Shown piece after piece: positions 7,005-34,106 of a stretch of 64,000 bases of DNA; the first letter of the stretch is position 1, and each line of letters opens with the position of its first letter. Source of the DNA: Escherichia phage V18. Position numbers and translations under genes: made by a program. Where the stretch lies: the sequence record NC_041937.1; one strand, 5' to 3'. The notes beneath the pieces were generated by a model. That model had not been told where the DNA came from, did no database searches, and was given only the letters and a program-made list of their open reading frames with translations.

Positions 7005-7682
7005 TTAGTGTGGTCCACTTGTCTCGCCATCAGGGCAAGAGTGGGTATGACCTTTATATTCTGCATAGAATGAATCCAAATCCACACCAGCAGCAGTTAT
7101 AATTCTACCAGATGGGTCTATTGTGGCACCATTCATTCTGATATTTCCATCCACAGCAGCTCGCAAATTGGCAGCCCCATTAGTGAAAGAAAACTCCCCA
7201 CTGCTGTCGCACCGTAATGTCCCACCAGGTGTTTGAAGCTCAAAATCGCCAGAAGGTGTCAGTTTAAAATAAACCCTATCATTCCATAACTCTACGTTAT
7301 CAGGATCGATCTGTAAAGAGTTTGAGTCTGAATGAACAGAGGTGATTGCCCACCCTGGAAACAGGCCGTGAGTTTGTTGATCGTCGTTATTGTTTTCATT
7401 TCTCTCTGAAAACTGCAATCCTACAACATCTCCGGCCTTAATAGGAAGTGTTAACCTTGCCTTTCCGCTGTTTGCAGACATCACCTGAATTGGAACGTCA
7501 TAGATAAGAGGGTATCTCTCCACATCTCCGTCATCAAACGTGGTTTCAGCTATTGGCTGCACGGCTGCAGAAGGAATACTGTAGTCAACACTGACAACTC
7601 TGGCCCTGATGCTGGTGTGGTAGTCCCTCATTATTTTTTCTATAAAGGATCTTACAGCAGCGTCTTTCCTATTTATTGCCAT
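7005..7682 (-). CDS. putative baseplate central spike (gpV-like)
   Basis: 225 aa; beta-rich repeat region and His-rich C-terminal tip (YKGHTHSCPDGETSGPH) typical of spike tips; GAGGAGG RBS upstream. Confidence 0.5.
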   Translation of the reverse strand: MAINRKDAAVRSFIEKIMRDYHTSIRARVVSVDYSIPSAAVQPIAETTFDDGDVERYPLIYDVPIQVMSANSGKARLTLPIKAGDVVGLQFSERNENNNDDQQTHGLFPGWAITSVHSDSNSLQIDPDNVELWNDRVYFKLTPSGDFELQTPGGTLRCDSSGEFSFTNGAANLRAAVDGNIRMNGATIDPSGRIITAAGVDLDSFYAEYKGHTHSCPDGETSGPH

Positions 7683-24619: not shown

Positions 24620-24694
24620 TGGTGGCCCTGGGTGGAATTGAACCACCGTCTGGCGATTATGAGTCGCTTGCTTGAACCTTCCAGCTACAGGGCA
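24620..24694 (-). tRNA. tRNA-Met (anticodon CAT)
   Basis: Hand-folded cloverleaf: anticodon loop CTCATAA, T-arm GGTGG-TTCAATT-CCACC, encoded CCA; position 1:72 is a T:C mismatch. Confidence 0.6.
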
Positions 24695-24770
24695 TGGTGC
24701 TGATAGCAGGACTCGAACCTGCAACCTATTGATTACAAATCAATTGCACTACCAATTGTGCTACATCAGC
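24695..24770 (-). tRNA. tRNA-Thr (anticodon TGT)
   Basis: Acceptor GCTGATG/TATCAGC, D-arm GCAC/GTGC, anticodon stem ATTGA/TCAAT with loop TTTGTAA, T-arm GCAGG-TTCGAGT-CCTGC, CCA encoded. Confidence 0.7.
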
Positions 24771-24867
24771 AAAAAGGTGCTAGGTGATGGAATCGAACCA
24801 CCTATGTATTCAACGACCAATAGATTTACAGTCTACACCGCTACCTCTACGGGATAACTCCCCAATT
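24771..24867 (-). tRNA. tRNA-like element with Tyr(GUA)-type anticodon arm; acceptor stem not resolved
   Basis: Anticodon arm GTAGA-CTGTAAA-TCTAT and T-arm GGTGG-TTCGATT-CCATC present, long variable region, but 5' and 3' ends do not pair; may be degenerate or mis-folded by me. Confidence 0.3.
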
Positions 24868-24942
24868 TGGCACCCCGTACTGGACTCGAACCAGTGTCAA
24901 CGGCTTAGAAGGCCGCTGCTTTATCCACTAAGCTAACAGGGC
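24868..24942 (-). tRNA. tRNA-Arg (anticodon TCT)
   Basis: Acceptor GCCCTGT/ACGGGGT with G:U pairs, D-arm GCTT/AAGC, anticodon stem GCGGC/GCCGT with loop CTTCTAA, T-arm ACTGG-TTCGAGT-CCAGT, CCA encoded. Confidence 0.65.
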
Positions 24943-25434: not shown

Positions 25435-25721
25435 GTTCGCCGCAGGGGTGTATTCCCTGCGACTTGCCCAGCGTCCTGGACCAGCAAGACCCAACAAGTG
25501 GGTTACCAGAGCACATTACCGCGCTTTGGCTCGACCTTATTACAGGTTGGCTGGGGTCACATCGTCATGTGCTGGCTGCCCCTACCATTTTAAGTGTGGT
25601 GCACTATCAAGCCCTCTAAGGGGAACTCAGTCTTCTCCGAACCCTGTTTCAAAACATCCGGAGATAAAGCCATCAAATTCATCTTTAAATCGGATATTCA
25701 TCATGATACACGAAAACAACC

Positions 25722-25964: not shown

Positions 25965-26056
25965 AGCATTACCTGTAGACCTCGTAAGTTAAAATTGTAT
26001 CACATCATATTGCAGATCTTATCAGGTAACATTATTTTTGTCAACAGATTCCGGCC

Positions 26057-26230
26057 TTATCCCCTCCTGTCTGCATATTCTTTAATCGCAACCTCATCTG
26101 CATTGGCGACTAAATCTTCAAAGTAACTCTCAAGCTCCTCGTCAATGTCAGGAAACCAACTCTTTTTCCTGTCAGTGTGAATCGCAGACTTGTTGAACTT
26201 ATTACAGTTCTTTGCTACCGGATTGTTCAT
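26057..26230 (-). CDS. small hypothetical protein (57 aa)
   Basis: Short ORF MNNPVA...AIKEYADRRG not in the track, immediately upstream of ORF 26241-26819's start region. Confidence 0.3.
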   Translation of the reverse strand: MNNPVAKNCNKFNKSAIHTDRKKSWFPDIDEELESYFEDLVANADEVAIKEYADRRG

Positions 26231-26240
26231 TAATCACCCC

Positions 26241-26819
26241 TCAGCGTTCATAATAAATCTTATTTAACATTACCTCATCCTTTGCAGAGAGAATACCGAG
26301 ATATGCATCACCGAACCTACCTGCAACAACCTCTACATGATACATCACTTCGTTAATATCGTCAAGAGTGATAACTGGATGACCGTATCTCTCTGAGTAT
26401 TGTCTCAGAGTGCGATGTAGGGAATCATCATCGTAGGCAGACTTTTTAATATCACAAACACGACGAATAGCCTTGATGTCGAAAAACCCTGTGCGATACC
26501 AACCAAGAAAAAGGTTTCGTACAGTGTCAACACCTACATCAACACCGTCAAGAACCTTATCTACAAGATAACTGTCATCCTTTGGACCTGCTTCCTTAGT
26601 GCGAATGTAGTTGCCATCTTTTCCAGGTGACATCTCCTTCTCATCACCAACCTGAATACCATCATTTGGTGGTGTTAACCACTTATCCGGATGCTTACGA
26701 TCACGAGCGTTAGAATGATTACGCTGGAAACCTGGCTTCCACTTGAAAGTTTTCTCCATCTGTTCTTCATTCTGATAACGTTTTGCAATCTTTTCACGGT
26801 CATCTTTGCGTGGACTCAT
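26241..26819 (-). CDS. hypothetical protein
   Basis: 192 aa ORF with good coding composition; no motif recognised. Confidence 0.5.
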   Translation of the reverse strand: MSPRKDDREKIAKRYQNEEQMEKTFKWKPGFQRNHSNARDRKHPDKWLTPPNDGIQVGDEKEMSPGKDGNYIRTKEAGPKDDSYLVDKVLDGVDVGVDTVRNLFLGWYRTGFFDIKAIRRVCDIKKSAYDDDSLHRTLRQYSERYGHPVITLDDINEVMYHVEVVAGRFGDAYLGILSAKDEVMLNKIYYER

Positions 26820-27180
26820 AGCTGCCTCCTCTTCAAGTTATAGAAAAACTCACTGTATCGCTTTGTAACGAGCTTTTCTATCAAACTGGTGCGATTGCCT
26901 TACCTGGTATAGTTTATATAGCTGTGGAGCGATTTAGGGGCCTTCTTGTCCGTTTCCACACATAAACTTCATCCAAGCTCGCGCGGGAGACTCTCAACCG
27001 ACTCCTTACGGCGCTGGCAAGCTTTCGTCGGTGGTCCACATCAGTGCTCGGCCTTTGGCCTGCGCTATCGCTTCGCTCCCACACATGTTAACAGACCTGC
27101 ATGTATGCACTTCTGTTATTGTGTGCACCCGGGAGGCCCGGCATCTCGCCCCTCGTAGCGAGTGCCAATGAAGGGCCGAC

Positions 27181-27320
27181 ACTACCCGTAGTAAGTAATA
27201 AATTTAAAACATAGTACTTAGGATCTAGTATATTCTACATAAGTTAAGTATATGTACTTAGTACCATAAGTACTAGATCTTTTATTTTTTATTATTTAGT
27301 TATTTTAGTTATATTCTTTA
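27181..27320. other. AT-rich tract with short repeats (possible DNA unwinding element)
   Basis: Strongly AT-rich; repeated GTACTTAG / AGTACT words and tandem TTATTTTAG; lies between GC-rich segment and palindromic repeats. Confidence 0.4.
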
Positions 27321-27322
27321 TG

Positions 27323-27382
27323 TGTCCGTATCACGGACAGTTAGTGTCCGTATGACGGACAGTAGTGTCCGTATCACGGACA
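27323..27382. repeat. three phased palindromic repeats (iteron/operator-like array)
   Basis: TGTCCGTATCACGGACA at 27323-27339 and 27366-27382, TGTCCGTATGACGGACA at 27345-27361; 7 bp arms, 3 bp centre, 21-22 bp phasing. Confidence 0.7.
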
Positions 27383-27457
27383 GTTACTAACCTCTGTTCC
27401 ATAGCGAACATAAAACATACGAATCCTTATAGTACAGATATTTAAGTTTTTACTGGT

Positions 27458-27808
27458 CTAACCAGTTGTTGACATTCGAATAACTTCTTCTGGTGGCAAA
27501 ACTTTGGAAAATGTGCATCTTTTACCTCTCCCTTGTGTGGATATTTCAACCACTCCTGCACATTCTAAAGTTTTAACGCACGCTGCTGCTTTTGTTTTCT
27601 TTATCCCAATATCTGCTGCAATTTTCCTTGTGCTGGGCGTGAAGCGTGAATTTCCTCCAAGCTTATACCAGTTGTGCAGGTAGCAGTATACGATCTTGTC
27701 ATATAAGTCAAGAACAACAACCTCACCAGTTGTGTCATTCAAAACTTTTGACATAGACAGTATTTCAAGGGGGACTTTAAGATATAGCAGCTTATCCCCA
27801 TCTTTCAT
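27458..27808 (-). CDS. small winged-helix DNA-binding protein (putative regulator or initiator)
   Basis: 116 aa; FTPSTRKIAADIGIKKTKAAACVKTLECAGVVEIS resembles a wHTH recognition region; 3' end lies about 75 bp from three palindromic repeats. Confidence 0.5.
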   Translation of the reverse strand: MKDGDKLLYLKVPLEILSMSKVLNDTTGEVVVLDLYDKIVYCYLHNWYKLGGNSRFTPSTRKIAADIGIKKTKAAACVKTLECAGVVEISTQGRGKRCTFSKVLPPEEVIRMSTTG

Positions 27809-27855
27809 ATCTCCTGATTCTCCTTGTGTGGCAATTTTCTTTAAAATAGCAGGGA

Positions 27856-28410
27856 TTACTCCCCGCTGTCAATAGCAAGACTCATTGCAATACGGTATGC
27901 CTCTTCTAATGGTAAGAGTCTCCCCCACACATCCCAACCGACATCAAACTGCCTGCCAAACAACTGCTGTGTGGTTCCGTGAGCATGACCGAACAGTTGG
28001 ACCGATCCGTGAGGCTTTCTGTTCCACTTTGCAAACTGGTAATGGCTCATACAGATCAAATTCTTGTTGTGGCGAAGCTCGTAATAATCTACAACCTCAT
28101 GACCGAACTCTTTCATAATTCTGACAGTCGTCCTTGTGTCATGGTTACCACGAACAAGAATAATATGTCCGTTCAACATATTTAGAACATCTGGGAGCAA
28201 TTTGTTAATATTCTTATCATTAGTGCACGCAATATCTCCTAAGTGAAACACAGTGTCTGCAGGTGACACAACAGAGTTCCACTTGGTGATGATCCCCGCA
28301 TTCATACTGTCAAGATTGTGATCATACTGAGATCTGTGTTTTTGACATGAGTCAAACTCCATGACCCGCTGGTGGAGAAAGTGTGTGTCGCTTGTTACAA
28401 AGTATTTCAT
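27856..28410 (-). CDS. calcineurin-like metallophosphoesterase (putative polynucleotide 3'/2',3'-phosphatase)
   Basis: Start at ATG 28410 (MKYFVTSDTHFLHQ) with GAGGA RBS; motifs DTHF, HLGDIA, RGNHD, GHAH. Confidence 0.65.
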   Translation of the reverse strand: MKYFVTSDTHFLHQRVMEFDSCQKHRSQYDHNLDSMNAGIITKWNSVVSPADTVFHLGDIACTNDKNINKLLPDVLNMLNGHIILVRGNHDTRTTVRIMKEFGHEVVDYYELRHNKNLICMSHYQFAKWNRKPHGSVQLFGHAHGTTQQLFGRQFDVGWDVWGRLLPLEEAYRIAMSLAIDSGE

Positions 28411-28417
28411 ACATTCC

Positions 28418-28828
28418 TCATTTAAGTTTAATGCAGTTTTTAAGCTGGCGTTCCATACGATCCACAACCCTGTCTGGAACATCATGAATGCTTTTACTAC
28501 CATGGCGGTTTTCAACCACGATTACGGTATAACTATACCCATGACTGATCGCCATGTCAATATATTCTTGCACATATTTTTCTTTTGTAAATGTATTACT
28601 TACCACGATACGGTCGTATCCCATACGCATCATATCTTCTACGTTATCTTTGCACCATTTTGCTGCAAGTGTTACTTTACTTGCATCCCAGTTGTAATTT
28701 CCATCATCGTCGTACCAGAACATGTCGTTCTCAAAATGTGGATACAGACCTTCTAAAGATAGCGCACTTGCCAGTGTTGATTTGCCAGACCCTGGTAGAC
28801 CACGCACGATATATAGCATTTTAGACAT
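28418..28828 (-). CDS. P-loop polynucleotide kinase-like protein
   Basis: Start at ATG 28828 (MSKMLYIVRGLPGSGKSTLA) with GGAGG RBS; resembles T4 Pnk kinase domain; stop overlaps phosphatase RBS. Confidence 0.6.
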   Translation of the reverse strand: MSKMLYIVRGLPGSGKSTLASALSLEGLYPHFENDMFWYDDDGNYNWDASKVTLAAKWCKDNVEDMMRMGYDRIVVSNTFTKEKYVQEYIDMAISHGYSYTVIVVENRHGSKSIHDVPDRVVDRMERQLKNCIKLK

Positions 28829-28856
28829 AGTAATCCTCCGTTTTAATTTCAACGAT

Positions 28857-28885
28857 AGTATACCTAACTGTTTTGTTAATTTCAA
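28857..28885 (-). promoter_or_regulatory. sigma70-like promoter for kinase/phosphatase operon
   Basis: Minus strand TTGAAA-N17-TATACT in divergent intergenic region. Confidence 0.4.
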
Positions 28886-28928
28886 GTGTTGACACTAGGT
28901 TATTTGTGTGGCAGGATAGACTGACAAA

Positions 28929-29606
28929 ATGACAAATGAGGAACGTATGATGAAGTATTTTAATGCAGACGACCTAGTTGACAAAGGTCTTGTAACCAGC
29001 AGATATTACACAGATCTTGGGTTAAAGATCTATAAATATGCCAGAAAAGTATTTTACAACAATTTATGGCATTTGTCCCCTCGTTTACTGGAGTGCCGAG
29101 GCATTGTTGTCGGTAATGAAGGAAATGTTGTGGCATGGCCCTTCACAAAAGTGTTTAACTTGGGAGAAAACTCCACCAACCTGTCTGACAATAAGCTTGT
29201 GACGGCGGTAGAGAAAAAGAACGGATTCCTTGGTGTGGTATCATCTCATAAAGGTGAACTATTGTTCTCAACAACCGGATCTCTTGATTCTCCATATTGT
29301 AACCTCGCAAAGGAAACCATCCAGGAGCAATGTGGTAATTTAGATCTTATCAAGAAGGTTATGGGCAATGAAAACATGACATTCATGTTTGAAATTTGTC
29401 ACCCTTCAGATCCGCATATTGTTCAGGAAGATCATGGCGCATATTTGATAGGTTGCAGGTATAATGATTCTGGAATAATGCTACCAGAGGCAGCTTTAGA
29501 TGGGATTGCCAAATACCTTGGTGCAAAACGTCCTCACACTGTGCGTGAAATTCCGTTCAGCTATGCAAAAGAATTGGCTGCAGAAACAAGAGGTGAAGGT
29601 ATATGA
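28929..29606 (+). CDS. putative RNA/DNA ligase-like nucleotidyltransferase
   Basis: 225 aa; candidate motif I lysine in VEKKNGFLGV (KxNG); divergent from kinase/phosphatase operon; assignment tentative. Confidence 0.45.
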   Translation: MTNEERMMKYFNADDLVDKGLVTSRYYTDLGLKIYKYARKVFYNNLWHLSPRLLECRGIVVGNEGNVVAWPFTKVFNLGENSTNLSDNKLVTAVEKKNGFLGVVSSHKGELLFSTTGSLDSPYCNLAKETIQEQCGNLDLIKKVMGNENMTFMFEICHPSDPHIVQEDHGAYLIGCRYNDSGIMLPEAALDGIAKYLGAKRPHTVREIPFSYAKELAAETRGEGI

Positions 29607-34077: not shown

Positions 34078-34106
34078 TTGACATAACCACACGGACGTGG
34101 TATTGT
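34078..34106 (+). promoter_or_regulatory. sigma70-like promoter
   Basis: TTGACA-N17-TATTGT upstream of ORF 34138. Confidence 0.45.

Follow-up and report, generated by a model that had tools for sequence, protein, structure and literature searches.

The 64-kb window examined here, that is, the whole stretch of DNA that was analysed, derives from a Vequintavirus (an rV5-like E. coli myovirus) and carries a short array of palindromic repeats in a 640-bp non-coding gap with leftward genes on either side. To the left of the gap is the leftward gene at 26241-26819, encoding a 192-aa protein to which no function was assigned; to the right is the gene at 27458-27808 (minus strand), encoding a 116-aa winged-helix protein equivalent to rV5 ORF79 and FFH2 ORF72. 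The array (27322-27386) is downstream of the latter gene, 75 bp from its stop codon. It is abutted on its left by an AT-rich block (27191-27321), which in turn adjoins a GC-rich block (26930-27190), and on its right by a spacer (27387-27415) leading to the 3' flank of the winged-helix gene. A sigma-70-like promoter site (27843-27872, minus strand; TTGACA and TATTTT separated by 18 bp, TG-extended) lies upstream of the winged-helix gene and matches the position of the annotated rV5 promoter P76. Transcription from this site would cross the winged-helix gene, the array, the AT-rich block and the GC-rich block.

The palindromic repeats and their conservation in Vequintavirus

Three exact copies of TGTCCGTNNNACGGACA are present, at 27323-27339, 27345-27361 and 27366-27382, compared with 0.08 expected by chance in the window, and a count of three was reached in none of 100 shuffled sequences. 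The consensus, TGTCCGTAT(C/G)ACGGACA, starts at 27323, 27345 and 27366. In every copy, two perfectly inverted 7-bp arms flank a 3-bp centre (ATC, ATG and ATC in order), with copies 1 and 3 reading TGTCCGTATCACGGACA and copy 2 reading TGTCCGTATGACGGACA. The start-to-start distances are 22 and 21 bp, or about two helical turns, and the true repeat unit, flanks included, is 21-22 bp long (GTGTCCGTATCACGGACAGTTA). Thus, the initial annotation, which had described three palindromic 17-bp sites with 7-bp arms and a 3-bp centre, spaced 21-22 bp apart on one face of the helix, was accurate for this isolate.

The same annotation had pointed to the core CACGGAC at 34090, in the spacer of a promoter, as a hint of a small regulon. 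The 7-mer is present there, but with 5 occurrences in the window against 3.2 expected, and 21 of 100 shuffles giving an equal or better count, it does not rise above chance. The promoter-like site in question (34078-34106; TTGACA and TATTGT separated by 17 bp) has its own spacer palindrome, CCAC-ACGGAC-GTGG, and what it has in common with the array repeats is one chance 7-mer. Searches of the window and of full rV5 for whole palindromes and half-sites likewise gave nothing above chance: there was no further match to TGTCCGTNNNACGGACA with up to two mismatches elsewhere in the window, and no site with up to one mismatch outside the array in the complete 137,947-bp rV5 genome. The six rV5 matches found when up to three mismatches were allowed are within the shuffle expectation of 2-10, and the best of them is not conserved in the window. 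Four isolated single matches to the exact 17-mer in IMG/VR were taken as chance. As the palindrome is confined to the array in rV5, it behaves as a single-locus cis element without a regulon, which is expected of an origin and not of a regulon.

Matches to the 1.1-kb stretch around the array, with 80-99% identity, were obtained in 117 GenBank phage records. Nearly all of these are Escherichia phages of the genus Vequintavirus, the closest being vb_EcoM_bov10K2 (98.9%). The array was found in all 117 Vequintavirus records; the label given to it in GenBank is only 'repeat_region' or tandem repeat. Copy number was surveyed in 60 of the 117 records by matched length, two of them being read directly. 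About 47 of the 60 have four copies and 10 have three; the extremes are phage navn, with two, and O157 typing phage 14, with six, in which the R3-R2 pair is duplicated. The description of the array as triple therefore holds for the present isolate and not for its relatives in general, which have 2, 3, 4 or 6 copies.

An alignment of nine phages indicated that the common state is four units, R1 to R4, which in the direction of the flanking genes read TGTCCGTGATACGGACA (R1), TGTCCGTCACGCGGACA (R2) and TGCCCGTAATACGGACA (R3), R4 having the same sequence as R1. Copy 3 of the window corresponds to R1, the unit nearest the winged-helix gene, and copy 1, in the plus-strand reading, to R4. Copy 2 is a hybrid that combines the left half of ancestral R3 with the right half of ancestral R2, and judging from the alignment, in which columns 118-138 are missing from the window, it is the product of a 21-bp unit deletion. 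With R2 and R3 fused in the window, R2 lost in phage nomine, and R3 and R4 fused in FFH2, the alignment points to three independent deletions of exactly one unit.

Among relatives the repeat arms are almost invariant, whereas the 3-bp centres vary (GAT, CAC, AAT, GAG and CAT); R3 has a conserved asymmetric arm, and dyad symmetry is retained in nearly all units. Fixed arms, variable centres and an asymmetric arm in R3 are features of a dyad contacted by protein, with an uncontacted centre, rather than of a selected RNA stem. Across seven phages, variable columns made up 7.7% of the array and 6.1% of the AT-rich block, compared with 14-16% of the flanking coding regions and 45% of the 29-bp spacer. 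The array thus varies less than the flanking genes while the adjoining spacer varies freely, which shows that it is under constraint, that is, purifying selection. The comparison with orthologous phages that had been proposed as a check on the repeats therefore came out in their favour.

The adjacent winged-helix protein

By a wide margin, the best match of the 116-aa protein in both structure and sequence is 4RO3, the DNA-binding domain of PLE RepA. The next structural matches, with full-length alignments, are the staphylococcal RepA_N initiators 4PQL, 5KBJ, 4PT7 and 4PTA. For this comparison an alignment-based model was used, the single-sequence AlphaFold model having a pLDDT of 38. The protein thus has the features of a winged-helix N-terminal DNA-binding domain of the RepA_N / DnaD-like type. 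In Pfam it matched DUF6945 (PF22182) with an E value of 4.5e-6 and 27.1 bits, against a 28-bit cut-off, and HTH_36 with 25.1 bits, against a cut-off of 25; DUF6945 also matches its distant homologues. No match to the Pfam RepA_N family (PF06970) was obtained even at E <= 1. Searches of PHROGs placed the protein in family 12838, 'replication initiation protein', with weaker matches to the initiator families 8102, 428 and 270. The neighbours of its gene are genes of nucleic-acid metabolism, namely polynucleotide kinase, phosphoesterase and RNA ligase.

A C-terminal host- or replisome-specific domain is absent: the ORF ends after the winged helix, also in the aligned relatives. On these comparisons, the protein is a homologue of an iteron-binding initiator domain, and it consists of that domain alone. 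Its family is very small, with 12 matches among 1.8 billion representatives in a full HMMER scan and 16 in a profile search. Longer homologues of 180-217 aa, from uncultured phages, do have C-terminal extensions. Several of these tails (among homologues P0011, P0012, P0022, P0023 and P0024) end in an acidic ...(D/E)xPF, which resembles the C-terminal tip of SSB, DDDIPF, a recruiter of replication proteins. Another homologue, P0013, carries a fused GIY-YIG nuclease domain. A tblastn search of GenBank phages with a long homologue found nothing. In three uncultured-phage contexts, no array comparable to that of the window was present within about 1 kb of the distant homologues (~31% identity); weak two-copy motifs alone were seen there and were not counted as support. 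One uncultured phage with a long homologue (L016) has, at 7460-7640, in the gap before a polynucleotide-kinase-like gene, two sequences that look like tRNA 3' halves (GGTTCGAT...CCA-like), which are possibly tRNA-like elements.

The closest relative offers a well-studied precedent. The structure 4RO3 is the N-terminal domain of RepA from PLE, a phage satellite of V. cholerae (Barth et al., 2020; PMC7145576). PLE RepA is classed as a RepA_N protein, and the domain crystallises as a dimer like those of the plasmid proteins; it binds a semi-palindromic origin repeat in EMSA, and genetics together with EMSA showed that it drives replication of the satellite with the phage replisome, in a manner that needs a helicase of the SF1B class (PMC7145576). 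The iterons of RepA_N proteins are in general 'semi-palindromic direct repeats', typically with a central poly-A tract, and their C-terminal domain is thought to recruit the replication machinery (PMC7145576). The two systems differ in several respects. PLE is a satellite, whereas here the phage itself carries the locus; PLE RepA has the C-terminal domain that the window protein lacks; and the PLE iterons, which are repeat 3 of NCR3, contain 13-bp inverted sub-repeats around an A-tract, compared with 7 bp around a 3-bp centre here. Binding and origin function are proven for PLE RepA and putative for the window protein. The initiators of pSK41 and pTZ2162 (4PQL, 4PT7, 4PTA and 5KBJ) are more remote: they have no detectable sequence similarity to the window protein, with no staphylococcal RepA_N match in a PDB profile search at E <= 1, their iterons are located within repA, and their C-terminal domains are host-specific. 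Weighing these comparisons, we consider that the 116-aa protein probably binds the repeats.

The AT-rich and GC-rich blocks

The AT-rich block is a candidate DNA-unwinding element. With 18.5% GC it is both the most AT-rich part of the window and the one with the lowest duplex stability, and no segment of the rV5 genome is poorer in GC than the equivalent one there. Within the block are an imperfect dyad of ~100 bp (27192-27298), GATC at 27222 and 27276, and the 9-mer TTTAGTTAT twice in tandem at 27296-27313. No recurrent phage promoter motif was found in the block; more widely, no sigma-70-like promoter was detected on either strand of 26820-27458, and none is annotated there in rV5. A scan of 26000-29200 called no terminator-like site at the locus, and the stems of the repeats are followed by GTTAG or GTAG on the plus strand and by CT or CATAAAG on the minus strand, not by U/T-runs. 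The array locus, near 65.2 kb in rV5, is 1.46 kb away from the point at which cumulative GC skew reaches its global minimum. However, the authors of the rV5 genome paper found that the skew switch coincides with divergent transcription, and their skew analysis for an origin gave transcription switches only; the skew minimum, being a transcription switch too, is not independent evidence of an origin. The second-lowest-GC 100 bp of the rV5 genome is elsewhere, in a 2.6-kb region without an annotated gene where two transcription blocks converge (NC_011041.1, 104013-106618). Also in this region, a 49-nt segment matches (88%) the HTH gene from one of the 13-kb plasmids described below.

The GC-rich block (minus strand) reaches 60.5% GC over 200 bp, the highest value in the window and in the rV5 genome. 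A core of ~100 nt recurs, with about 85% identity, in unannotated stretches of a few circular 13-kb E. coli 'plasmids' (NZ_CP020521.1, our L023; CP148565.1; NZ_CP035869.1; NZ_CP178698.1; NZ_CP043822.1). When the loci were compared (L021 3001-3308, L022, L024, L025 and L026), one helix was found to have three pairs changed on both sides, ACCGAC/GTCGGT versus GCTGCC/GGCAGC, and G-U pairs are possible solely on the minus, that is the transcribed, strand. Such compensatory changes and strand-specific G-U pairs suggest that the block is probably a structured RNA or single-stranded element and not a gene, and the annotation of rV5 ORF78 (rv5_gp074) within it probably marks no real gene. The RNA folding z-score is weak, at about -2 for either strand, and it is the covariation that makes the case for structure. 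At gathering score, Rfam recognised three tRNAs alone in the window and nothing in the GC-rich block or the array, and a permissive search added sub-threshold matches at chance level, such as rli43 with 27.9 bits against a gathering score of 100. The 18-mer of the GC-block loop gave chance matches in GC-rich genomes of IMG/VR and GTDB, the one that was inspected being coding. The link between the GC-rich block and the array is one of position only.

The plasmid-like elements are circular, ~13.2-13.7 kb in size and found in E. coli; a 39.6-kb record holding three copies of the matched element would fit a trimer of a ~13.2-kb unit. They encode a major capsid protein, a tape-measure protein and HTH proteins, with no terminase, as well as a baseplate protein with 54% amino acid identity to rV5 gp048 and a neck protein with 48% identity to gp056. 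Judged by this gene content they look like plasmid-borne satellites of rV5-like phages; a search for publications on Vequintavirus satellites found none. Their order of features is that of the phage, with the GC-rich block followed by AT-rich repeats and a dyad array of their own, made up of dyad-symmetric 19-mers (CGGAAATATTTACCGGGGT) at 23-bp spacing. The phage palindrome is absent from the elements and their 19-mer is absent from the phage. Replicon-specific repeats beside a common structured element fit an origin-type module, although the parallel between phage and plasmid is suggestive only. An HTH protein of the elements weakly matches initiator PHROGs. We also considered whether their 303-aa HTH protein is a relative of the window protein; the match was not significant (E 0.17).

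Second in GC content among 200-bp segments of the window is 25440-25639 (56%), which lies near the tRNA cluster, between the ORF74-like and ORF75-like genes, and is unannotated in relatives. It may be another structured RNA, and Rfam gave no match in this segment. In the cluster itself (24620-24942) ARAGORN found three tRNA genes (Met, Thr and Arg), against six (Pro, Met, Thr, Ser, Tyr and Arg) annotated at the same place in rV5, FFH2 and nomine. The Met-to-Arg span of the window is shorter by about 400 bp, suggesting that parts of the cluster were deleted.

A candidate replication origin and competing explanations

The initial annotation had offered two functions for the array, an operator array bound cooperatively by a dimeric protein or the iterons of an initiator. 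Of these we favour the second, and consider the chance to be about even that the repeats are the iterons of a phage replication origin, bound by the adjacent winged-helix protein. From the repeats, their conservation and uniqueness, the homology of the protein and the compositional extremes we infer the following course of events. Dimers of the 116-aa protein would bind each dyad-symmetric 17-mer and, the sites being two helical turns apart, two to six dimers would be aligned on one face of the DNA. The bound dimers would bend or stress the DNA so that the adjoining AT-rich block melts, and the phage replisome would load there, with its T7-like primase-helicase, SF1B helicase and DNA polymerase; the GC-rich element might have a part as well, for example if read-through transcription of it supplied an RNA for priming or loading. 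The rV5 genome does encode a T7-like primase-helicase, a family A polymerase and an SF1B (Pif1/RecD-like) helicase.

Several observations are in keeping with iterons of an origin. The repeats are direct repeats with inverted sub-repeats near a gene for a candidate initiator, with three copies here and two to six in relatives, and they adjoin an easily melted AT-rich region, so that the array and the lowest-GC block together have the classical layout of iterons plus AT-rich DNA. On paper, the origin of phage lambda works like the array, with sites for O dimers beside an AT-rich region. Lambda ori contains four iterons of about 19 bp with internal dyad symmetry, next to an AT-rich unwinding region; an O dimer contacts each of them with its winged-helix N-terminal domain, the C-terminal domain of O recruits P-DnaB, and the origin lies inside the O gene. 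No match of the window protein to the 'O-like' PHROG families was found, and thus no sign of homology to lambda O. Against an origin, the repeats lack at their centres the poly-A tract that RepA_N iterons typically have, the protein is missed by the Pfam RepA_N family, and its distant homologues are not accompanied by a comparable array within about 1 kb. The tolerance of two to six copies is compatible with an origin, yet it is a loose constraint on number, and the phage may replicate largely by recombination-dependent initiation, like T4-like phages. We found no publication on these repeats, on a Vequintavirus origin or on DUF6945.

The main competitor is that the same winged-helix protein binds the repeats as a transcription regulator, the array acting as operator or roadblock, and this we consider a serious though clearly less probable alternative. 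The regulator might modulate read-through from its own operon into the structured RNA, the ORF71-like gene, the tRNAs and the late genes; alternatively, its target might be a phage-type promoter in the AT-rich block that escaped recognition. Because the protein lacks a C-terminal recruitment domain, it might just as well be a regulator that does no more than bind DNA. OR and OL of lambda likewise have three or more dyad-symmetric 17-bp sites with cooperative dimer binding; repressor operators of this kind overlap promoters, however, and such repressors usually have several operator regions, whereas the window array occupies a single locus with no detectable promoter overlap. The lack of a sigma-70-like promoter between 26820 and 27458 tells against a regulator, though phage-specific promoter types are possible. 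The sites are downstream of the gene and not over its promoter, which would be unusual for autoregulation, and there are no further sites in the genome such as an operator regulon would have. Furthermore, it is an initiator and not a repressor that clearly stands out as the closest homologue, and a regulator would leave unexplained why the most AT-rich block of the genome lies beside its sites.

The remaining explanations appear considerably weaker. The repeats, with or without the neighbouring blocks, might be a site recognised by the small terminase or a packaging factor for headful packaging. Repeated boxes occur in lambda cosB and in the pac sites of P1 and SPP1, and phased repeats beside GATC-containing AT-rich DNA recall pac/cos regions such as lambda cosB and P1 pac. 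The large terminase gene is about 4.3 kb away in rV5, and the 13-kb elements that share the GC-rich block have capsid and tail genes and no terminase, so that they would need the packaging signal of a helper. But these elements have the GC-rich block and not the palindromes, and whatever they borrow is therefore not the array. Published PhageTerm analysis of the closest relatives indicated circularly permuted DNA with no fixed ends, and the adjacent protein, whose gene sits among genes of nucleic-acid metabolism, resembles initiators and not small terminases; a packaging site is thus improbable. Much the same small chance attaches to the idea that the 7-bp stems and 3-nt loops form hairpins for processing, stability or termination at the 3' end of the winged-helix mRNA. 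The region is transcribed leftward and its RNA folds strongly (z = -5.1), although palindromes produce such a score trivially, and one change in phage Aya restores perfect symmetry of R2 (TGTCCGC..GCGGACA). There is, however, no U-tract after any stem on either strand and no terminator was called; a C-A mismatch in the middle of the R3 stem is conserved in the four-copy relatives, and R4 of SYGMH1 has another. What is conserved is sequence rather than pairing, and the strict 21-22-bp phasing would be meaningless for RNA hairpins. Least probable of all, in our view scarcely credible, is a functionless tandem duplication, a slippage-prone minisatellite that is palindromic by accident. Whole units are easily gained and lost, as shown by the 2, 3, 4 or 6 copies and by at least three independent one-unit deletions, but the array persists in every one of the 117 Vequintavirus records, is better conserved than the genes around it, next to a spacer that varies greatly, and has retained dyad symmetry in nearly all units.

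If the repeats are indeed the iterons of an origin, a virulent coliphage would join Gram-positive plasmids and a Vibrio satellite among the carriers of RepA_N/PLE-RepA initiators. Iteron origins and initiators of this type are already known, and what is unusual here is a domain-only protein in a virulent coliphage. This minimal form, reduced to the DNA-binding domain, bears on how RepA_N proteins recruit the replisome. The locus is a testable origin candidate, with a defined protein, 17-bp sites and an adjoining unwinding element, and a mapped origin would be useful for phage engineering, for replicating amplicons and for reading marker-frequency data.

A broader proposal, which we regard as doubtful, is that the array, the AT-rich dyad and the GC-rich element form a composite origin, in which transcription from the initiator-like gene through the iterons yields an element that primes or loads the replisome, and that the 13-kb plasmids hijack Vequintavirus through this element. 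Read-through would then either make the structured RNA or expose a structured single strand. If this were true, the plasmids would represent a previously undescribed class of Vequintavirus-hijacking satellites. As rV5-like phages are widely used in biocontrol of E. coli O157 and in phage-therapy collections, the GC-rich element shared with the plasmids points to possible satellites of therapeutic phages.

A final observation concerns the database records of these phages. Eighteen GenBank records (MG065635-MG065690) that are labelled 'Campylobacter phage', with Campylobacter jejuni as host, are 96-98% identical to E. coli rV5-like phages over the array locus, and are probably mislabelled or contaminant genomes.
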